DNA of 39,545 nucleotides from a virus (IMGVR_UViG_2913152634_000006), one strand, 5' to 3'. Positions 8,129-36,933 are shown, counted from the stretch's first letter. Numbers and translations: made by a program. The notes: generated by a model from the sequence alone, not told the origin.

Positions 8129-8974
8129 ATGACAAAGCCTTCTCATTTTAGAACCCCTCTTCGTTATCCGGGAGGTAAGGCAAAATTCTTGCCACATATT
8201 GAACAAATACTCCGCAACAATGATCTCATTGGTGGATGTTATGCTGAACCTTATGCAGGTGGAGCCGGTGTAGCATTAGGTTTGCTCCTTAACGGTCTTG
8301 TTGAAAATATCTTCATAAATGATATTGATCCTGCCATTTATTCTTTTTGGTTTGCAGTGGTTAATCATAACGATCTGTTATGTGAAATGATTGATGAAGT
8401 TCCTGTGACTATTGAAAATTGGCATACTCAAAAGGAGATACTCCTAAACAATGATAAATATAGTATGCTTGAAGTCGCATTATCTACTTTCTTTTTAAAT
8501 AGAACAAACCGTTCAGGAATACTTAAGGCTGGCGTTATTGGAGGGAAAGAACAAAAAGGACCATGGAAGTTAGATGCAAGATTCAACAAAAAAGAGTTAA
8601 TTAAAAGGATTGAACTAATTGGTGCATATAAGGAGAAAATTTACGTATCGAATTTTGATGCTGTAGATTTTCTGCTACACCAAAAAGCATTGCTACCCAA
8701 AAATAGTCTAATATATCTTGATCCACCTTATTATGTTAAAGGAGCAGAGTTATATAGAAATTTTTATAAACATGATGATCATGTAAAAATCGCTAATACA
8801 CTACGGGAAATTCAACTACCTTGGGTTGTGTCTTATGACAATGTGCCTGAAATAAAAAGCATATATCATGAATTCAATATGACTGATTATACGCTTAATT
8901 ATACTGCACAAGATAAGAAAAAAGGTCTAGAAATTATCATTTATAATCATGGTATAAAAATCCCTGACATTTAA
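8129..8974 (+). CDS. Dam-family (D12-class, alpha-type) N6-adenine DNA methyltransferase
   Basis: 281 aa; N-terminal RYPGGKAKFL, SAM-binding EPYAGGAGV, catalytic DPPYY; AT-rich coding sequence with an AT-rich upstream region. Confidence 0.85.
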   Translation: MTKPSHFRTPLRYPGGKAKFLPHIEQILRNNDLIGGCYAEPYAGGAGVALGLLLNGLVENIFINDIDPAIYSFWFAVVNHNDLLCEMIDEVPVTIENWHTQKEILLNNDKYSMLEVALSTFFLNRTNRSGILKAGVIGGKEQKGPWKLDARFNKKELIKRIELIGAYKEKIYVSNFDAVDFLLHQKALLPKNSLIYLDPPYYVKGAELYRNFYKHDDHVKIANTLREIQLPWVVSYDNVPEIKSIYHEFNMTDYTLNYTAQDKKKGLEIIIYNHGIKIPDI

Positions 8975-8991
8975 ATTTAAGGATGATATAG

Positions 8992-10689
8992 ATGATTAAA
9001 GAAATTAGTTTTAAAAAATTTAAGAAACTGATAGATATTGACTTCTCATTCAATGAAGACATCAATATAATATCAGGAACCAATGGGACATGTAAGACAA
9101 CATTGCTTCATTTAATTAGCAATGGTTTCCAAATGCCACCATCTCGATCACAAAATTATTCAAATAGTAATTGTGTTAGAGTTATAAAATCTATAAACAA
9201 AATAGCCAACCCCAAAATGGAAGCAATTGTTAGGGAATCAAAAAATTACACCGATCCGGCAGAGGGAACAAAAGGTGTGTTATTTTCTATTAACTATTTG
9301 GATCATAGCACACTAGACTTCAGAAAGCACAACTCAAAAAATCCAGACGAAGCGCAACGGTATGCTATCAAACCAGTATACCCACGCGGAAAAGAAAAAC
9401 AATCACTTCCAGCTAAACCAGTTTTATATCTTGGATTATCGCGACTATTCCCAATTGGTGAAACTAAAGACGACGCCCTTACAAAAATTCCGTTAAACCT
9501 ACCAGAAGAGTATGTTGGTTATATATCGAAAATATATAATGAACTTTTGGGCATTAATATTATAAATATAGAATCAAACAATATCGGAGATTTTAAAGCT
9601 GGCCCATTATTTGATACCGATAACCCAGCAATTGATTCTAATACCATATCATCCGGGGAAGACAATATATTCATTATAATCAAGGCATTAGTTAGCCTTA
9701 GGTATTATTTTGAATCACTTATTCAATCCACTGATCAAAAAGAAAGCATTCTGTTAATAGATGAATTTGATGCCACTTTACATCCTTCTTTACAGATAAG
9801 ATTATTAGATAAAATTTATCAATACGCAAAAGATTATAAGATTCAAGTATTTTTCACAACGCACAGTCTGACATTGCTAGAGTATGCTTTTCATAAAAAA
9901 TACCATGTTGTCTATCTAATTAACAATATTACAAAGGCTCTGCTTTTGGATAATCCTGATATATTAAAAATAACAATGTATCTGAAAACACAAACAAAGG
10001 ATGAGATATACACAAGGAACAAGATACCAGTTTTCACGGAAGATGAAGAAGCTCGCTTTTTATTTAATGAAATACTTGGTTATTGGATAAGCAAATATCC
10101 AAATTTTGCTATAGTTAGTAATTCATTTCACTTAATTGATTGTTTCATTGGCGCAGACAATTTAAAAACTATTTTTAATGATTCTCATCTTAAGGAAACC
10201 TCGTTAAAATCAATTTGTATTCTTGATGGAGATCACAGCCCTGAGGATCAGAGAGGAATTATATCACTGCCGGGTGAAAAAGCTCCAGAACAATTGATAT
10301 TTGAGCATTGTGAGCACCTTTATAATACCGACGACTCTTCCTTCTGGGAAAATCAGGATATAATTAACAATGGTTTTTCGAAAGAGTTATACTTACTCAA
10401 GATACGTCCTCAATTACAATCAATTGAAACTGAAATTCAGAAAAGAAAAGACAACCATGAGTCTACATCCGGTTTAAGAAGAAGATTAAATAAGAAAATA
10501 TTCAATCAGCATATTGAATTCTTTAGAATGATTACAAGAAACTGGTTAGACAAACCAGAAAATCAGAAATCTCTCCAGTATTTTTACAATGGATTACGAT
10601 CCTTATTCTACCGGGTTACACCAACAAACGGCATTGACAGAAAAATTTGGGATTTTGACTATAACAAAATCATTAAAGAGGATAAATAA
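8992..10689 (+). CDS. ABC/AAA-type ATPase with probable C-terminal TOPRIM-like region (OLD-family-like nuclease candidate)
   Basis: 565 aa; N-terminal P-loop ISGTNGTCKTTLLHLI, Walker B/D-loop ILLIDEFDATLHP, H-loop VFFTTHSL; C-terminal acidic motifs VFTEDEE and ILDGDHS spaced about 55 aa apart, resembling TOPRIM Glu and DxD; begins 18 nt after the methyltransferase stop with SD AAGGATGA; occupies the locus where P2 carries old/tin. Confidence 0.8.
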   Translation: MIKEISFKKFKKLIDIDFSFNEDINIISGTNGTCKTTLLHLISNGFQMPPSRSQNYSNSNCVRVIKSINKIANPKMEAIVRESKNYTDPAEGTKGVLFSINYLDHSTLDFRKHNSKNPDEAQRYAIKPVYPRGKEKQSLPAKPVLYLGLSRLFPIGETKDDALTKIPLNLPEEYVGYISKIYNELLGINIINIESNNIGDFKAGPLFDTDNPAIDSNTISSGEDNIFIIIKALVSLRYYFESLIQSTDQKESILLIDEFDATLHPSLQIRLLDKIYQYAKDYKIQVFFTTHSLTLLEYAFHKKYHVVYLINNITKALLLDNPDILKITMYLKTQTKDEIYTRNKIPVFTEDEEARFLFNEILGYWISKYPNFAIVSNSFHLIDCFIGADNLKTIFNDSHLKETSLKSICILDGDHSPEDQRGIISLPGEKAPEQLIFEHCEHLYNTDDSSFWENQDIINNGFSKELYLLKIRPQLQSIETEIQKRKDNHESTSGLRRRLNKKIFNQHIEFFRMITRNWLDKPENQKSLQYFYNGLRSLFYRVTPTNGIDRKIWDFDYNKIIKEDK

Positions 10690-22064: not shown

Positions 22065-22587
22065 TTCGTTGTTACCACCATCAGCCAGCAATTTCATGCG
22101 TTGTGCCGAAGCCGTCGGAACACGCATTACAGACATTCCGGTAGACCTCAACACACTGTGGTCGCCGGATACCTGCCCGGTGCATCTGCTGCCCTATCTC
22201 GCCTGGGCATTTTCCGTTGACCGCTGGGATCGCAACTGGCCGGAAGAGACAAAGCGACAGGTTATTCGTGATGCATGGCTGATACACCGACACAAAGGGA
22301 CCATCAGAGCACTGCGCAGGGCCATTGAGCCGCTGGGATACCTCATTCGCGTGTCTGAGTGGTGGGAGTTCGGCGGAGAACCGGGAACATTTACCGTTGA
22401 AGTCGGCACACTGGACAGTGGCGTGACGGAGGAAATGTATCTGGAAATGGAGCGGTTGATTGCTGATGCCCGTCCGGTCAGCCGCCACATGACAGGGCTG
22501 AATATCATTCAGGAAATTCCGGGGGATATTTTCGCAGCGGCGGCAACTTATGACGGTGAAGTTATTACCATTTATCCGGACGATTAA
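22057..22587 (+). CDS. I: Baseplate/tail protein I
   Basis: ATG 22057 overlapping the J stop by 8 nt; 176 aa (P2 I is 176 aa). Confidence 0.75.
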   Translation: MSNSLLPPSASNFMRCAEAVGTRITDIPVDLNTLWSPDTCPVHLLPYLAWAFSVDRWDRNWPEETKRQVIRDAWLIHRHKGTIRALRRAIEPLGYLIRVSEWWEFGGEPGTFTVEVGTLDSGVTEEMYLEMERLIADARPVSRHMTGLNIIQEIPGDIFAAAATYDGEVITIYPDD

Positions 22588-22589
22588 GC

Positions 22590-24749
22590 ATGAGTACCAC
22601 AACACGAAAATTTAAAACCGTTATCACCGATACAGGTGCAAAAAAATTAGCTCAGGCAGCCGCGCCAGATGGTAAGCCTGTCCGCCTGACTCATATGGCC
22701 GTGGGCGACGGTGGCGGCACGTTGCCCACACCAGACAGTAAGCAGACCCGTCTGGTGCATGAGGTGTGGCGACACACTGTTAATCGCGTCATCCTGGACG
22801 CAACACATCAGAACCGCATTATTGCGGAGCTGGTTATACCTCCTGAAACGGGCGGATTCTGGATCCGGGAAATTGGTGTATTTGATGAGCACGGCGATTT
22901 AATCGCGGTGGGCAATACTGCCGAAAGTTACAAGCCAACCGTTGCCGAGGGGTCCGGACGTGCACAAACATTTCGCACCATTCTGACCGTATCCAGCACT
23001 GCCAGCGTGGCGCTTACCGTGGATAACACCATGGTGATGGCCACAGTGGATTACGTGGATGACAAACTGAAAGAGCATGAACAGTCACGACGTCACCCGG
23101 ATGCCTCGCTGACCGCAAAAGGCTTTGTTCAACTCAGTAGCGCCACTAACAGCGATTCTGAAACGCTGGCCGCAACGCCGAAAGCGGTTAAGGCCGCGTA
23201 TGACCTGGCTAACGGAAAATATACCGCTCAGGACGCCACGACGGCACGAAAAGGGATAGTCCAGCTCAGCAGTGCAACCAACAGCACGTCTGAAACGCTG
23301 GCAGCGACACCAAAAGCGGTTAAGGCGGTAATGGATGAAACGAACAAGAAAGCCCCATTAAACAGCCCGGCACTGACCGGAACGCCAACAACACCAACTG
23401 CACAACAGGGAACGAATAATACCCAAATCGCAAGCACGGCTTTCGTTATGACCGCGATTGCCGCACTTGTAGACTCTTCACCTGACGCACTGAACACGCT
23501 GAACGAGCTGGCGGCGGCGCTGGGCAACGACCCGAATTTTGCGACCACCATGACTAACGCGCTTGCGGGTAAGCAACCGAAAGATGCCACCCTGACGGCG
23601 CTGGCCGGGCTTGCTACTGCGGCAGACAGGTTTCCGTATTTTACGGGGAATGATGTTGCCAGTCTGGCAACCCTAACAGAAGTCGGGCGGGATATTCTTG
23701 CGAAATCGACCGTTGCCGCTGTTATCGAATACCTCGGTTTACAAGAAACGGTAAATCAGGCTTCTGGCGCATTACAGAAAAACCAGAACGGCGCAGATAT
23801 TCCCGATAAAAAACTATTCCTGCGTAATATCGGCACAACAAATTCAACAACAATGTCTTTTAGTGGTGGTGCTGGATGGTTCAAACTGGCAACTGTAACA
23901 ATGCCACAAGCCAGTTCCGTGGTTTACATAAACCTGATTGGTGGCGCAGGGTATAACGTTGGCTCCCCGCAGCAAGCAGGCATCTCTGAGCTGGTTCTGC
24001 GTGCAGGAAATGGAAATCCAAAAGGTATTACTGGTGCATTATGGCGACGGACCTCGGTTGGATTTACTAATTTTGCATGGGTGAATACATCCGGTGATAC
24101 CTATGACATTTATGTAGAAATAGGTAATTACGCCACAGGTGTTAATATCCAGTGGGATTATACAAAGGATGCAACTGTACAAATTCATACATCACCAACT
24201 TATACAGCGAATAAACCAACAGGCCTGACAGATGGAACTGTATATGTAATTTACAGTTCGCACATTAAACCGACTGCTGCTGAGGTTGGGGCGTTGTCAT
24301 TATCTGGCGGTCAATTGAATGGTGCATTGGGTATCGGAACATCCAGTGCTCTTGGCGGTAACTCGATTGTTTTGGGTGATAATGACACGGGATTTAAACA
24401 AAATGGCGACGGGTATCTGGATGTTTATGCTAATAACGTCCATGTTATGCGCTTTGTCTCCGGCGGCATTCAAAGTAATAAAACCATAAATATTACAGGG
24501 CGTGTTAACCCCTCGGATTACGGTAACTTTGATTCCCGCTATGTGAAAGATGTTCGACTTGGTTCACAGCAATATTATGGCGTGAACAACTGGCAAACAT
24601 GGAATTTCCAGTGCCCGTCAGGTCATGTATTGACTGGTATTAATGTTCAGGATACAGGGTCCAATTCTGCCGATAATATAGCGGGCGTTTATTACAGACC
24701 CGTTCAAAAGTATATAAATGGCACCTGGTATAATGTAGCGAGCGTTTAA
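22590..24749 (+). CDS. H: Tail fibre protein H (constant N-terminal part plus currently expressed variable C-terminal part)
   Basis: 719 aa; tail-fibre repeat motifs ([19 protein letters not shown] twice); C-terminal [11 protein letters not shown] shared with the inverted Hv' cassette; gix-like site inside the gene at codons about 378-386. Confidence 0.85.
23127..23330 (+). repeat. Tandem duplication of a tail-fibre collar repeat (two roughly 72-bp copies, period about 132 bp) within H
   Basis: Copy 1 at 23127-23198 and copy 2 at 23259-23330, encoding [22 protein letters not shown]. Confidence 0.5.
23722..23747. promoter_or_regulatory. gix/cix-like recombination site, left (inside H)
   Basis: ttatcgaatacctcggtttacaagaa; 23/26 identical to the reverse complement of the right site and close to the recalled Mu gix sequence; central dinucleotide TC at 23734-23735. 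Confidence 0.6.
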
Positions 24750-24750
24750 T

Positions 24751-25275
24751 ATGATGCACTTAAAGAACATAAAAGCGGGTAACGCTAAAACACTGGAACA
24801 GTATGAGTTAACAAAGAAACACGGAGTTATCTGGCTTTACTCTGAGGACGGAAAAAACTGGTATGAGGAAGTGAAAAACTTTCAGCCAGACACCATAAAG
24901 ATTGTTTACGATGAAAATAATATTATTGTCGCCATCACCAAAGATGCCTCCACGCTTAACCCTGAAGGTTTTAGCGTAGTTGAGGTTCCCGATATAACAA
25001 CCAATCGTCGGGCCGATGATTCCGGTAAGTGGATGTTTAAGGACGGAGCTGTGGTTAAACGGATTTATACAGCTGACGAACAACAACAGGCCGAATCACA
25101 AAAGGCCGCGTTACTTTCCGAAGCAGAAAGCGTTATTCAGCCACTGGAGCGCGCTGTCAGGCTGAATATGGCGACGGATGAGGAACGCGCACGACTGGAA
25201 TCATGGGAACGCTACAGTGTTCTGGTCAGCCGTGTGGATACGGCAAATCCTGAATGGCCACAAAAGCCTGAATAA
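24751..25275 (+). CDS. G: Tail fibre assembly chaperone G
   Basis: 174 aa, starts 2 nt after the H stop; paralogous to the inverted G' (shared MMHLKNI...GKNWYEE...[22 protein letters not shown]). Confidence 0.8.
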
Positions 25276-25282
25276 AAATTAA

Positions 25283-25298
25283 GGCCCGATAGCGGGCC
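25283..25298. terminator. Short GC hairpin (GGCCCG-atag-CGGGCC) between convergent G and G'
   Basis: Perfect 6-bp stem read directly; bidirectional position between convergent genes; weak flanking U-tracts. Confidence 0.4.
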
Positions 25299-25303
25299 TT
25301 GTC

Positions 25304-25837
25304 TCATTCTGGTTGTTCGGGAAACGTTACTGGCAGGCTGGAGGTGTCTGTAGATTCGACCTTCTGCGCATAGAGCATCCACTCGGTTAATTTTTGTTTA
25401 TTCTCGTCGGAAATGATGCCCAGCCGTAGCTGTGAGTCCCATAGCTGGGTTTTATCCCTGACAAGTTGCACCAGGCTTTGCTTTTCATTCTCTGCCTGCT
25501 GCCTCTGTTCCTCTTCGGTATAAGTTCGCTTTATCACTACGCCATCTTTGAACATCCATTTACCCGAAATATCAGCCCGGCGATTTGCTGTAATATCAGG
25601 AACCTCAACGACGCTTGCGCCTTCCGGATTAATTGCTGAAACATCCTTTTCAATACAAATAATAACGCCGTTGTAGTCATAGACCATTTTCAACGTATCA
25701 GTCTGGAAATTCTTTTGTTCCTCATACCAGTTTTTTCCATCCTCTGTATAAAGCCATTTGATGTTAAATTGTTTCGTTAGCTGGTATTGCTCTTTTGTTT
25801 TAGGGTTGCCAGCTGTAATATTTTTTAAGTGCATCAT
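25304..25837 (-). CDS. Alternative tail fibre assembly chaperone G'
   Basis: 177 aa, paralogue of G on the opposite strand inside the invertible segment. Confidence 0.8.
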   Translation of the reverse strand: MMHLKNITAGNPKTKEQYQLTKQFNIKWLYTEDGKNWYEEQKNFQTDTLKMVYDYNGVIICIEKDVSAINPEGASVVEVPDITANRRADISGKWMFKDGVVIKRTYTEEEQRQQAENEKQSLVQLVRDKTQLWDSQLRLGIISDENKQKLTEWMLYAQKVESTDTSSLPVTFPEQPE

Positions 25838-25839
25838 AA

Positions 25840-26796
25840 TTAAATACTCCCCGCGTTATACCACGTTCCATTAATGCAATACTGAATTGGCCTTGCCTGA
25901 GTTGTATCAATTAATTCATCACGGTTTCCGTTAACTGAACCAGTAACGACATAACCTGACCTGTCAGACCAGCCGGGACCATTCCATGTCTGAACAGATG
26001 ACAGACCGCCCAGGCGAATACCTGTAATAAACCTTGAGTTACATTCTGCCTGCGTATATGCACCAACATCCCCCGCAGAGGGTTTGCGGGTTGTGGTGTA
26101 AAACTCTGACCAGTTAGCTTCAAAGCCATAACCATCACGCGCTGAACGATAAAAGATGCCGCCGTTCTTATAATTCACGCGGAACTGTACAGCAGGGCAA
26201 CTCCCCGCATTCATATTGAAGTGGAGGATTAATGTCGATGCACCACTGATATCTGCATCATAAACACCGCTATTCCAGTTCCAGCCAACAGCTTTATCAT
26301 TTGCGACCCTGCTTCCTGTTTGCCCTAAAGCAAATGCAGGCTGCTGGTTTTTCGTGTTGTAGTCTCGTCGCCAGCCAGGAGAATAAGCATCACCATGATT
26401 AATATAAGTGAATTGAGCGTTAGTAATTCCGCCACCGCTGGACGTGCTCGGCGTGGTAACGCGTATAGTCATTGCGCCGCGGGTGCCAATAACTTCCACC
26501 ACAGCACCTGCAAGACAAATATTTCCGCAACCTGTATCTGTAATTACCTTATTATTTGCATAAGCCCATGAGCCTTTGCACATCCAGTAAGGATGGTTAA
26601 ATGCCCCCTGACTCTCCAGCCACGAAATGAATTGTGCGGTTGTCCAGGCCTGACTATCGCCACCAATATTCAGCCATGAGCTATATGCGCGGCAGGCCCC
26701 AATATTTTTGGTGAAGGTATCTTTTCCCGGAATATCTGCGCCGTTCTGGTTTTTCTGTAATGCGCCAGAAGCCTGATTTACCGTTTCCTGTAAACC
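25840..26796 (-). CDS. Alternative tail-fibre C-terminal cassette Hv' (promoterless and start-less; expressed only after inversion fuses it to H)
   Basis: Open frame from the crossover in the right gix site to the stop at 25840; the frame is closed by TAA immediately outside the site; C-terminus IQYCINGTWYNAGSI parallels the H C-terminus; the ORF-track Met start (26583) is internal. Confidence 0.65.
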   Translation of the reverse strand, partial: GLQETVNQASGALQKNQNGADIPGKDTFTKNIGACRAYSSWLNIGGDSQAWTTAQFISWLESQGAFNHPYWMCKGSWAYANNKVITDTGCGNICLAGAVVEVIGTRGAMTIRVTTPSTSSGGGITNAQFTYINHGDAYSPGWRRDYNTKNQQPAFALGQTGSRVANDKAVGWNWNSGVYDADISGASTLILHFNMNAGSCPAVQFRVNYKNGGIFYRSARDGYGFEANWSEFYTTTRKPSAGDVGAYTQAECNSRFITGIRLGGLSSVQTWNGPGWSDRSGYVVTGSVNGNRDELIDTTQARPIQYCINGTWYNAGSI

Positions 26797-26810
26797 GAGG
26801 TTTTAGATAA
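26785..26810. promoter_or_regulatory. gix/cix-like recombination site, right (inverted relative to the left site)
   Basis: ttcctgtaaaccgaggttttagataa; its reverse complement ttatctaaaacctcggtttacaggaa is close to the recalled gix sequence. Confidence 0.6.
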
Positions 26811-26864
26811 TGGCCGTTTCCGGCCTGCATGGCATGATTTGCGCTTTTGGACGGGAGATTCAGC

Positions 26865-27452
26865 GTGCTGATTGGCTATGTAAGGGTATCAACAAATGAC
26901 CAGAATACAGACCTGCAACGAAACGCTCTTGTTTGTGCAGGATGTGAACAAATATTTGAAGATAAATTAAGCGGGACAAAGACAGACCGACCGGGATTAA
27001 GACGCGCTTTAAAGCGCCTTCAAAAAGGTGACACGCTGGTTGTCTGGAAACTGGATCGCCTCGGGCGAAGCATGAAACATCTGATTTCTCTCGTCGGGGA
27101 ACTACGGGAGCGAGGAATTAATTTTCGCAGTCTGACCGACAGCATAGATACATCTTCTCCAATGGGGCGTTTTTTCTTCCACGTGATGGGTGCCCTGGCT
27201 GAAATGGAACGTGAATTAATTGTTGAACGTACACTGGCCGGACTGGCGGCAGCACGCGCACGGGGGCGCACAGGCGGACGTCGACCGAAGCTGACAAAAG
27301 AACAGCATGAGCAAATAGCAAGGCTGATCAAAAACGGGCACGACAGAAAACAACTGGCAATAATTTACGGCATTGGTATATCGACGATTTATCGTTACCA
27401 CCCCGCAGGAGAATCAATCGGAACAATAGAGAAGAGTCAGGAAACAAAATAA
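26865..27452 (+). CDS. Serine-recombinase DNA invertase (Gin/Hin/Cin/Pin family)
   Basis: From GTG 26865 (GGGAG SD 7 nt upstream): MLIGYVRVSTNDQNTDLQRNALVCAGCEQIFEDKLSG... is near-identical over the first ~140 aa to recalled Mu Gin, including the catalytic Ser in YVRVSTNDQ; C-terminal HTH. ORF-track ATG 26847 is the alternative start. Confidence 0.9.
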   Translation: MLIGYVRVSTNDQNTDLQRNALVCAGCEQIFEDKLSGTKTDRPGLRRALKRLQKGDTLVVWKLDRLGRSMKHLISLVGELRERGINFRSLTDSIDTSSPMGRFFFHVMGALAEMERELIVERTLAGLAAARARGRTGGRRPKLTKEQHEQIARLIKNGHDRKQLAIIYGIGISTIYRYHPAGESIGTIEKSQETK

Positions 27453-27480
27453 CCGCTAATCTGACCATTAGCGGTTTTTG
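27451..27480 (+). terminator. Rho-independent terminator after the invertase gene
   Basis: aaccgctaat-ctgacc-attagcggtt followed by tttt, immediately after the invertase stop. Confidence 0.55.
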
Positions 27481-27487
27481 TGTTAAA

Positions 27488-27982
27488 TCAGAACAGCCCT
27501 TTAACTGAACTGGCCGCGCTGTTAAGAGATGATGTCACCTTATCTTTGAAGCCGGACAGCATATCGCTGAATGATGAGGATTGCAGGCGCTCCCGCAAAT
27601 CCTCATCACAGCGTTCAAGGGTCAGTGAAAATTCTATCTTTTTCGCCTTACCGTAGCGATCAAACTCGGAACGGGTCGTATTCGTTTCAGTCAGCACATA
27701 CATGCCGTAAATCTGCCCGACACCATCAATCAGAGGCCAGGGGCGTCCTGTATATGCCTGCGTGGTCAGCAACGAAAGCGACACTTCGCCACCTGTAATT
27801 TCAGGATAAAGCACGCCGGAAAGCACAATGCGATCATCACCTGCACCTATATACTGCCAGCTTGCTGAACGGTTAACGCGTTCATTTTTCACATGCCGCC
27901 AGCTTTTGTTTTGCTGTAACTGCTGATGCGGCAGTGTGCGCAGCTCAAAAACAAACATGCCGTAGATCATCATCATGACCAT
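27488..27982 (-). CDS. U: Tail protein U
   Basis: 164 aa, immediately downstream of the tape measure on the same strand; SWRH...GAGDD..I.LSG...RPWPL.DG...EFDRYG pattern as recalled for P2 U. Confidence 0.8.
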   Translation of the reverse strand: MVMMMIYGMFVFELRTLPHQQLQQNKSWRHVKNERVNRSASWQYIGAGDDRIVLSGVLYPEITGGEVSLSLLTTQAYTGRPWPLIDGVGQIYGMYVLTETNTTRSEFDRYGKAKKIEFSLTLERCDEDLRERLQSSSFSDMLSGFKDKVTSSLNSAASSVKGLF

Positions 27983-34462: not shown

Positions 34463-35248
34463 TCAATCACCTATGTGATTACGTTCTATATATCTTACAA
34501 TCTTCTCTAAAGATTCAAATCCCCACCTCTGCATAGCATGTGGGAATTCTGTATATTCATAATCTTCTATGGTGAGATCCCATGTACTTTTCTTGAATTC
34601 ACACTGATATAATCGCACAGTCTTGTTTAAAACCAACCCTTCTAACACACTGCTTTTCTTAATGATTTTGTCAATGTCTTTATTGTTAATCCCAATGTAG
34701 ATAGCTGTTACCGAACTTAAATCAGTTATCTTGTCAATTAAAATATTTTCTTGCTTTTGTAATAGCCCCACTCGCTTTATTATTCTAACTTCTTCTTCAT
34801 ATTTCCAATGCAATGATTTAGTAAGCAATAATTTACTAATTACATCAGCGCTATAAATGTTTTCTTGACTGATTTTTAGTTTACTTTTTATTCGACTCTC
34901 TAAATAATTAATGTCACCTTTCTGTGCCGTAATTAGGCATTTTTCTTCATCATCAAACCCTGCCCTTTCTGTGTCAATTGCTACAACAAACCCCTGATGT
35001 TTATCAGCATAATGTGACCACATCAGTACATTGAGAGGATTTTTAGAAAGGCATAAGCAGGCAACATTTTGATTGATCTCCCCCCTCATAGCTAATGGTT
35101 CAAGCGATTCACCATCTAATGAAAGTTCATAGCCATAGCTTTCAAAAGGATCATTAAACTCACTATACGGAGTGAATTTTATAGAGATGTAACCATCTTT
35201 AAAAAATCGTTCCAATGATGTCTTATCTATATATTTATACAGAATCAT
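34463..35248 (-). CDS. AT-rich accessory (moron) gene, DUF2971-like protein of unknown function
   Basis: Start placed at ATG giving MILYKYID...; LYKY N-terminus, FNDPFE and MWSHYADKHQGFVV motifs resemble DUF2971 as I recall it; opposite strand to flanking D and ogr; strongly AT-rich relative to neighbours. Confidence 0.55.
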   Translation of the reverse strand: MILYKYIDKTSLERFFKDGYISIKFTPYSEFNDPFESYGYELSLDGESLEPLAMRGEINQNVACLCLSKNPLNVLMWSHYADKHQGFVVAIDTERAGFDDEEKCLITAQKGDINYLESRIKSKLKISQENIYSADVISKLLLTKSLHWKYEEEVRIIKRVGLLQKQENILIDKITDLSSVTAIYIGINNKDIDKIIKKSSVLEGLVLNKTVRLYQCEFKKSTWDLTIEDYEYTEFPHAMQRWGFESLEKIVRYIERNHIGD

Positions 35249-35443
35249 AATATATTCAGAATTAATTATAGGTGTTATCAGTATACAGTACTTCAACAAG
35301 TAGATGTAAAGATCCCATTTAAACGTTCCTCCTCAATACGCGGATTAAACAAATTAAAGCATCTTACTCAAAATGGACCATCAGTTGGATTTAGAGCCAA
35401 CACAACCTAGAATAGCGGCAGCACCACGTTAAGGGAGGTCGCT

Positions 35444-35844: not shown

Positions 35845-36933
35845 TTACCTTCGCAAGTAGAAGGTTAGCGCCTCTCCTCTCAGGAGACAAGCGTTTGTAT
35901 GGGTCCACCACATATTGCAATTTTTATTCTCTTTTAAAATATATTCCACGGGCGTCATTAGTGCGAGCGCCTTGTGGGGTCTTTTGCTGTTATACAGCAC
36001 CAGATATTCCGCCAGCTTCTGGTTAAATAGCGCCAGATCTTCAAAGAGTAAAATCTCATTAAATTCAATAAACTGCTCTCTTAACGTCCGGTTAAAACGT
36101 TCACAGATAGCGTTCATTTTTGGCGTGTAGGGATAGGTCCAGAGGTGTTTGATAGCGGCTTCCTGCAGCGTTTTGTCGAAGTTTCCCAGGAACTCTTTTC
36201 CGTTATCTGTGATTATCTGGCTGATACCGACCGGGAACAACCGGGCTGCGCGGCTGAAGAAGTGATTGACGATATCACTGTTGAGTGACGGCACAGCCAG
36301 TGCCAGCGCGTAATTGCTGCATTCGTCGATCATGGTGATGACATAGCGACGCAGTTCGCCCATTCTGAGCTCAATGGCGTCCATCCCAATGAGCTCACCT
36401 GTCTTTACCGGGCGGTAGTGCTTTGGCCTGCGGGGTTTGGCAGACCGCTTTTTGACAAGCAGTGCCTTCCCCCGCGATCCCAGACGCACAGGTATCATCC
36501 GCATTTTATCATGTGCGGCAGCGATCATTCTGCCGATGGTGGAAACACTCGGACAGGCCAGATAGCGCTGTTCGCACCAGGGCTTCAGGCGAACAAAAAT
36601 CTGCTCTTTACCGAGGTTCGGCAGCTCTGTCCTGAGGCGTCGAATCTCTTTCAGCACATCGGGATGCCAGTGTTTTTTTCGTCGCACCAGAGGTGCCTTA
36701 CTGTGCGGGATTAGCCCCTCAGGTCCTTCCTTGTTCAGTAACTGACGCCACCAGTAAAGCGTGCGGCAGGACACGCCAAAGGCTTCAGAAGCTGCAGAAA
36801 TACCGTGTTTATCCCAGAAGTGCAGAGCCTTCATTCTCATTGTTGCTATATCAGCCATCACTGAAAGCCTCAACGCATAATCGGCCGTTTGGTAGTACTT
36901 AGGATAGCCAACCATCAGATGCTGCATTTGCAT
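35845..36933 (-). CDS. IS-element DDE transposase (rve integrase-core type, single ORF)
   Basis: 362 aa; N-terminal HTH-like segment (MKALHFWDKHGIS...CRTLYWWRQ), DDE-type core with ITDNGKEF; the real start is probably an internal Met (MADIATMRMK...); IS family and ends not determined. Confidence 0.7.
   Translation of the reverse strand: MQMQHLMVGYPKYYQTADYALRLSVMADIATMRMKALHFWDKHGISAASEAFGVSCRTLYWWRQLLNKEGPEGLIPHSKAPLVRRKKHWHPDVLKEIRRLRTELPNLGKEQIFVRLKPWCEQRYLACPSVSTIGRMIAAAHDKMRMIPVRLGSRGKALLVKKRSAKPRRPKHYRPVKTGELIGMDAIELRMGELRRYVITMIDECSNYALALAVPSLNSDIVNHFFSRAARLFPVGISQIITDNGKEFLGNFDKTLQEAAIKHLWTYPYTPKMNAICERFNRTLREQFIEFNEILLFEDLALFNQKLAEYLVLYNSKRPHKALALMTPVEYILKENKNCNMWWTHTNACLLRGEALTFYLRR

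Follow-up and report, generated by a model that had tools for sequence, protein, structure and literature searches.

Tail-fiber switches of the Gin/gix type have been textbook material since about 1980. Inversion of the G segment of phage Mu and the host ranges of the resulting G(+) and G(-) forms have been described (PMC4406740), and the mechanism of Gin-mediated inversion has been summarized (PMC3575834). The S/U and S'/U' versions of the fiber genes give Mu different host ranges: particles of the G(+) form infect Escherichia coli K-12, whereas the hosts of the G(-) form are E. coli C, Citrobacter freundii, Shigella sonnei, Enterobacter cloacae, Serratia, and Erwinia (PMC4406740). Here we describe a locus of this kind in the viral sequence IMGVR_UViG_2913152634_000006, a stretch of 39,545 nucleotides (nt) which was analyzed as a whole and is designated the window; positions are counted from its first letter, and the strand given is the plus strand. 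The region from 22590 to 27452 is, with high confidence, an invertible tail-fiber module of the Gin/gix type which is homologous to the Mu G segment and constitutes a binary switch. The module occupies the H-G position of a P88-like prophage (Xuanwuvirus, P2 family) that is integrated beside flk in E. coli. Two alternative fiber tips are made by flipping a segment of approximately 3.1 kilobases (kb), and this is an ordinary and well-understood type of phage host-range switch. A switching device of a known type had been proposed in an earlier note on this DNA, and the sites, reading frames, invertase, and cassettes bear out the homology to the Mu G segment.

Two sites of 26 base pairs (bp) in inverted orientation are present on the same molecule, as expected of Fis-dependent serine invertase systems. 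The left, gix-like site (23722-23747, plus strand; TTATCGAATACCTCGGTTTACAAGAA) is located inside the fiber gene H and has the structure TTATCGAATACC-TC-GGTTTACAAGAA with the central TC at 23734-23735. The right gix site (26785-26810, minus strand; TTATCTAAAACCTCGGTTTACAGGAA) has the structure TTATCTAAAACC-TC-GGTTTACAGGAA with the central dinucleotide at 26797-26798. The core dinucleotide is TC at both sites, each read on its own strand (23734-23735 and 26798-26797, respectively). The coordinates of the two sites and their mutual identity (23 matching positions out of 26) are confirmed as given in the earlier note. Their closeness to the gix sequence of Mu, which had been noted there, holds when the Mu record AF083977 is used for comparison: both sites of the pair in that record read TTATCCAAAACCTCGGTTTACAGGAA, and the left and the right site of the window agree with this sequence at 22 and 25 of the 26 positions, respectively. 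A search of the 39.5-kb window with a degenerate gix pattern, allowing up to three mismatches, gave exactly two matches, and the same search gave none in 100 shuffled sequences. There are also only two variable cassettes in the region. Because only two sites are present, the device is a binary switch, and the label "shufflon" that had been attached to it does not apply; a multi-site shufflon of the R64 Rci or p15B Min type, having at least three sites, was rejected on the same count of gix-like sites.

The sites are correctly described as inverted 26-bp sequences, but the repeat which they head is considerably longer. Its arms comprise 89 nt each (left arm 23722-23810, plus strand; right arm 26722-26810, minus strand) and are 93% identical (83/89), forming the longest inverted repeat of the region; the left arm encodes a stretch that is common to both versions of the fiber. 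The longest perfect run within the arms is 59 nt, and before position 83 mismatches are confined to site positions 6, 9, and 23. As had been claimed, the reading frame of the silent fiber part Hv' is closed by an in-frame TAA (26803-26805, minus strand). This codon is not located just outside the site, however, but at site positions 6-8, within the outer half-site of the right site, and it arises from the sole difference between the right site and the Mu gix sequence, a T in place of C at position 6 (CAA in Mu). The silent cassette, whichever of the two it is, is thus closed right at the outer half-site, which may well be incidental.

The open reading frames (ORFs) confirm the layout proposed for the interval between the sites, with Hv and G on the plus strand and G' and Hv' on the minus strand. 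H (22590-24749, plus strand) encodes a protein of 719 amino acids (aa) in which an N-terminal tail-collar domain of the P2 type is accompanied by two Phage_fiber_2 repeats. Its constant 5' part, Hc (22590-23735, plus strand), extends through the crossover dinucleotide, corresponds to residues 1-382, and includes the Pfam domain Phage_tail_fib at the N terminus (E 1e-53) in addition to the two Phage_fiber_2 repeats; residues 1-398 of H show 87% aa identity to H of phage P88. A direct repeat of 96 nt inside Hc (23099-23326; 75% identity, 132-nt spacing) corresponds to the two Phage_fiber_2 repeats recognized by Pfam. The expressed variable C-terminal part of H, Hv (23736-24749, plus strand; 337 aa from GLQE to the stop), shows 85-87% aa identity to fibers that occur in Mu-like Yersinia phages (vB_YpM_5/6/39), and over the C-terminal 166 aa its identity to the P2 gpH tip is about 81%. 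It differs from Sv of Mu, the resemblance to Mu S being confined to the last 84 aa or so (51%). Hv is paired with G (24751-25275, plus strand), a fiber assembly chaperone (Pfam Caudo_TAP, E 5e-36) that is 92% identical to Mu U.

The silent cassette is composed of the chaperone G' (25304-25837, minus strand; Pfam Caudo_TAP, E 4e-36), which is 97.7% identical to U' of Mu, and of Hv' (25840-26796, minus strand; 318 aa from GLQE to the stop), an alternative C-terminal fiber part that has no start codon of its own. Hv' is identical to Sv' of Mu in 305 of 318 aa (96%) and matches the structure PDB 8JU3, "Tail fiber protein S,S'", with an E value of 5e-214. The two chaperones are 56% identical to each other, and the two tips are mostly unrelated, since Hv and Hv' can be aligned only in their first 37 aa (76%) and their last 75 aa (37%). 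The locus thus has the properties of a Mu G-type switch: the site is located inside the fiber ORF, and each variable part has its own chaperone, the two being swapped together.

For an in silico inversion, the 3,061 bp between the central dinucleotides were reverse-complemented, with the exchange placed at the shared TC. The modeled H' is an uninterrupted ORF of 700 aa with neither a frameshift nor a stop, its first 405 aa are the same as those of H, and the start of G' follows 2 nt past the stop of H'. The earlier note had predicted a frame-exact fusion of Hc to Hv' with G' downstream, and the frames do join when the inversion is modeled precisely. It had also placed the crossover dinucleotide inside the codons for YLGLQE in H and had read LGLQE in the Hv' frame as well; indeed, the fiber frame runs through either site as CTC GGT TTA CAR GAA (LGLQE), with TC as bases 2 and 3 of the leucine codon. 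Because the left site lies within the LGLQE codons of H, the promoter and codons 1-382, start codon included, remain fixed, and the receptor-binding C terminus is exchanged together with the chaperone.

The predicted junctions exist in real E. coli genomes. The modeled Hc-Hv' junction (901 nt) is contiguous in 127 complete E. coli records, with identities of up to 98.4%, and the native Hc-Hv junction is contiguous in 19 E. coli records, so both orientations are observed in close relatives. Exact flips were found in two near-isogenic pairs of strains that carry the prophage at the same chromosomal position, namely, O145 RM9872 versus RM9467-C1 and O111 95NR1 versus 95JB1, the latter two being isolates from the Adelaide O111 outbreak of 1995. 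In both pairs, the flanks are identical over 1.5 kb on each side and the inter-site segment of 3,301 bp is the exact reverse complement, with 0 mismatches. The invertases of the paired strains are about 92% identical to that of the window, and their left outer half-site, TTATCGAATACC, is the same as in the window.

The window's own pair of cassettes was found in the flipped state in E. coli O169:H41 2014EL-1345-2, which is collinear with the in silico inverted window over 4,294 bp (97.2% identity). The sites of this strain are the predicted hybrids, TTATCGAATACC-TC-GGTTTACAGGAA and TTATCTAAAACC-TC-GGTTTACAAGAA. The exchange is placed within site positions 10-22 because the flanks retained their bases at positions 6 and 9 and the A of position 23 traveled with the segment; by this comparison, the crossover would be confined to a short interval around the central dinucleotide. 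Inversions in P2-like prophages of enteropathogenic E. coli (EPEC) have been detected by sequencing and polymerase chain reaction (PMC4272514). In the genome paper on 95NR1 and 95JB1, the inversion is not mentioned, and in the paper on phiSM of C. rodentium, the invertase is mentioned merely in passing.

The enzyme predicted to catalyze the inversion is encoded immediately after the segment, where the earlier note had recognized a near-Gin serine invertase. This Gin-family serine DNA invertase (26865-27452, plus strand) comprises 195 aa, and its GTG start codon is preceded by the ribosome-binding site GGGAG; translation most likely starts at this GTG (26865), as annotated in Mu and P88, rather than at the TTG at 26847. 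The protein contains the Pfam domains Resolvase (E 1.5e-50) and HTH_7 (E 1.8e-13) and shares 191 of 195 residues with the invertase of P88. Its identity to Mu Gin amounts to 85% over 181 aa, residues 1-120 differing by just three conservative changes, and the crystal structures of Gin (PDB 4M6F/3UJ3) are matched with E values of about 1e-100. The catalytic serine, Ser9, is intact, and the motifs MLIGYVRVSTNDQ and WKLDRLGRS are the same as in Gin. The invertase appears to be a mosaic: residues 1-120 are nearly those of Gin, and the DNA-binding domain (residues 135-195) is slightly nearer to that of Hin (53.9 bits with the Hin domain 1HCR versus 49.9 bits with Gin). The window invertase can be aligned to the DNA-binding domain of Hin with an E value of 1e-13, and the Q, R, and L equivalent to Hin residues 151, 154, and 155 are kept in the DNA-binding domain. 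These residues have been described as Fis contacts that are unique to the invertases (PMC3798978).

The first 110 nt of the invertase gene are 100% identical to Mu gin, 196 of the first 200 nt are identical, and the spacing between gix and the start codon has the same length as in Mu. According to Kahmann et al. (1985), as cited in the reference list of PMC3798978, the Mu enhancer is located within the invertase gene. Because both the 5' sequence and the spacing match Mu in this way, we infer that a recombinational enhancer is conserved in the invertase gene of the window; the putative enhancer (sis) would be located in the 5' part of the gene (26865-27064, plus strand), the part that contains the Fis-dependent enhancer in Mu. 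A loose regular expression for the Fis consensus gave two hits in the 5' region of gin, at nt 34 and 71, which are 37 bp apart and identical in Mu; their spacing is unexpected, and these hits were considered uninformative and were not used.

In the proposed mechanism, a conservative site-specific inversion analogous to that of Mu (PMC3575834), dimers of the invertase would bind to the two inverted 26-bp gix sites and would be activated by Fis bound to the enhancer near the 5' end of their own gene. Both sites would be cut with a 2-bp stagger at the central TC, one pair of subunits would rotate by 180 degrees, and the strands would be religated, whereby the 3,061 bp between the sites would be flipped. 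The present orientation would yield Hc-Hv, the fiber of 719 aa with a P2-H-like tip, together with G, and the flipped orientation would yield Hc-Hv', the fiber of 700 aa with the Mu S' tip, together with G'. A population of lysogens would then release particles with two adsorption specificities.

Several points weigh against this interpretation. The single assembled sequence displays one orientation only. The left site agrees with the Mu gix sequence at no more than 22 of 26 positions, with changes named at positions 6, 9, and 23, and in the case of SfMu a one-base change beside the core was suggested to impair inversion, the proposal of the authors being that a single-base change in the site can stop it (PMC4406740). 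A scan of 22400-27700 for the sigma-70 consensus revealed no promoter upstream of the invertase gene or Hv'. In addition, 2014EL-1345-2 is a relative (97-99% identity) and no direct descendant, so the narrow interval for the crossover is only comparative. The module could be a frozen relic, intact in sequence but no longer inverting here, for example if synapsis were blocked by the substitutions in the left site or by poor expression of the invertase, with Hc-Hv as the only product. We consider this very unlikely. The ORF of the invertase has its full length and unchanged catalytic residues, and the central dinucleotide is TC at both sites. None of the changes in the left site adjoins the core; relatives that have flipped show the same bases at positions 6 and 9, and the outer half-site TTATCGAATACC is also that of the two pairs of strains with an exact flip. 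In the flipped relative, the A of site position 23 appears at the opposite end of the segment, and the half-site position that mirrors it, position 4, is itself not the same in the outer and the inner half-site of Mu gix. Furthermore, Hv' and G' are still open despite being silent, and they are 96-98% identical to their Mu counterparts. That no promoter was recognized in front of the invertase gene says nothing either way, since weak expression is known for Mu gin. The Gin/gix-type switch is probably active in the window's lysogen.

A Mu S'-like specificity of the flipped form is plausible, Hv' being 96% identical to Sv'. In the case of SfMu, identity of more than 95% to S' did not confer the same host range (PMC4406740). 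The combination of a P2-H-like tip and a Mu S' tip, under the control of an invertase with a Gin-type catalytic part and Hin-like binding, might allow a P2-family phage to alternate between E. coli and other enterobacterial genera. It is quite improbable that the switch also acts in the lysogen, where a flip would alter the fiber and chaperone fragments made and the susceptibility of the host to other phages.

That the main selective role of the module should be found in the lysogen, the alternative fiber and chaperone products protecting the host against other phages, we regard as extremely unlikely. Inversion of cryptic-prophage DNA by PinQ and PinR is reported to block adsorption of T2 (PMC12529663; bioRxiv 10.1101/2025.03.28.646004), and the prophage of the window bears candidate defense genes. 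However, this prophage seems complete, with integrase, gpA, portal, terminase, capsid, baseplate, sheath, tube, tape measure, D, and ogr, and within the late tail operon the switch takes exactly the places of the fiber and chaperone genes. Its orthologs in Mu are known determinants of host range (PMC4406740), and the sequence gives no pointer to an expression of H in the lysogen. The least credible alternative, with a probability that is next to negligible, is a RecA-dependent homologous recombination between the 89-nt repeats for which the invertase is dispensable: the perfect 59-bp run in the arms would be enough for a low-frequency homologous exchange, and the crossover in the isogenic pairs can be placed only within site positions 10-82, but the exchange in the O169:H41 strain falls within the 13 bp of site positions 10-22, where the gix core is located, and outside the 59-bp run, the same architecture occurs in P88 and Mu with repeats of just 34 bp, and a conserved Gin ortholog adjoins the segment in every relative examined. 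Site-specific inversion by the Gin-type invertase therefore remains the reading that we prefer.

The module is part of the late operon of tail genes in a prophage of the P2 family. On its left side, Pfam domains of an integrase, gpA, portal, terminase, gpO scaffold, P2-type capsid, and small terminase were identified, and on its right side, on the opposite strand, those of gpU, tape measure, tube, and sheath, followed by gpD. The right flank contains ogr, hok, and a com-methyltransferase pair and then runs into the E. coli gene flk, and the host is therefore E. coli. As the structural genes, the replication genes, D, and ogr are present, the prophage looks complete rather than cryptic. Its nearest sequenced phage is Escherichia phage P88 (Xuanwuvirus, Peduoviridae), with 94.5% nucleotide identity over 81% of the fiber region, and its genes, a set of the P2 type arranged near the fiber genes in the same order as in P88, assign it to the P88-like prophages.

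Two hairpins were noticed in a consensus scan. A GC-rich hairpin between the convergent genes G and G' (25281-25300), followed by a T-run on the minus strand, is terminator-like and located 3' of G'. A second hairpin with a 10-bp stem and T-runs on both strands (27451-27476) is located between the stop codon of the invertase gene and the convergent gene for gpU; it looks like a bidirectional terminator that would separate the fiber/invertase block from the U, T, tube, and sheath genes. The GC content is 43-48% in the invertible cassette (23811-26721), 55% in Hc (22590-23721), and 51% in the whole window.

The prophage of strain TUM2820 (NZ_CP135688.1, 1434500-1443500) is located at the same flk locus and has a right flank that is 99.6% identical to that of the window, insertion sequence (IS) included. 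It is devoid of the whole invertible module, and G', Hv', and the invertase gene are replaced by one fiber gene, one chaperone gene, and a gene for an LbetaH-domain protein. TUM2820 was considered as an isogenic comparator and found to be unusable, as it has no invertible module. The lower GC content of the cassette, which is consistent with an origin in another phage lineage, and the module-free prophage at flk fit a horizontally exchanged module, and the whole fiber/invertase block behaves as an exchangeable cassette within the prophage family.

Some further genes of the prophage are mentioned for completeness. The early region includes a gene for a D12-class adenine methyltransferase (PADLOC PD-Lambda-5_B, E 1.6e-122) followed directly by one for an AAA ATPase of 565 aa (together 8129-10689), the latter with weak matches to the OLD/ATPase-Toprim, PtuA, AriA, and GajA models; the pair may represent an anti-phage defense moron. 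A DUF2971 protein encoded between gpD and ogr (34463-35299, minus strand) matches the PADLOC candidate defense family PDC-S31 (E 4e-27). The IS element with a transposase of the rve family is inserted between ogr and the hok/com-methyltransferase genes (35845-36933, minus strand), and related prophages without it cover 79% of the stretch in two pieces.

There is little new biology in a module whose parts are 92-98% identical to those of Mu. Its relevance stems from the fact that P88-like prophages are common in pathogenic E. coli (for example, O111, O145, O103, and O169) and carry a working binary host-range switch which the published study on the host range of P88 did not consider, inversion being nowhere mentioned in it (PMC5285337). 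In RefSeq, the silent cassette is labeled differently among relatives, as "tail fiber protein" (660 nt), "hypothetical protein" (1,116 nt), or "pseudogene, missing N-terminus", the last two being labels assigned by annotation pipelines. Near-identical assemblies of outbreak strains can differ at this locus purely by inversion, which is mistakable for a structural variant. The locus therefore matters for comparisons of single-nucleotide polymorphisms and structural variants as well as for the engineering of phage host range.

Among the known systems, the Mu G segment resembles the module of the window in the type of the 26-bp site, the LGLQE frame running through it, and a segment length of about 3 kb, as well as in the constant 5' part of the fiber gene, the two opposed cassettes of variable part and chaperone, and the invertase gene immediately downstream. 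The identities amount to 96% for Hv' and Sv', 98% for G' and U', 92% for G and U, and 85% for the invertase and Gin, and the 5' region of gin is 98% identical and equally spaced from the site. Mu differs in being a transposable phage with the constant part Sc, whereas the window contains a P2-family myovirus with an H N terminus of the P2/P88 type. The cassette expressed in the window is not Mu Sv but a fiber known from Mu-like Yersinia phages, and its tip resembles that of P2 H. The inverted repeat measures 34 bp in Mu and 89 nt in the window, and the DNA-binding domain of the window invertase is slightly nearer to Hin. Finally, gin of the window is not followed by com and mom but converges on the tail genes U and T.

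Phage P88 shares with the window the gene order V-W-J-I-H-G, G'-Hv', and invertase, followed by U and T on the opposite strand. It has the same outer gix half-sites, the identity is 96% for Hv' and G', and the invertases agree in 191 of 195 residues; in the P88 record, a "DNA invertase" and two fiber/chaperone pairs have already been annotated. In P88, however, the expressed cassette is Mu Sv-like (68.6% identity to Mu S) and the repeat comprises 34 bp, whereas the window has another Hv and a repeat of 89 nt. Judged by these sequence comparisons, the window is a cassette variant within the P88 family.

Cin of P1 and P7, Pin of e14, Min of p15B, and Hin of Salmonella belong to the same family of Fis-dependent serine invertases and act on 26-bp sites. 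The repeats of P1 are about 0.6 kb long, Min of p15B serves six sites in a true multiple-inversion system, and Hin flips a promoter and not a junction within a coding sequence. The cassettes of P1, P7, and D6 match the G, G', and Hv' DNA of the window with identities of 88-94%. The device is thus of an already known type that also includes the Mu G segment, the C segment of P1 and P7, and the P segment of e14, with which it shares part of its DNA.

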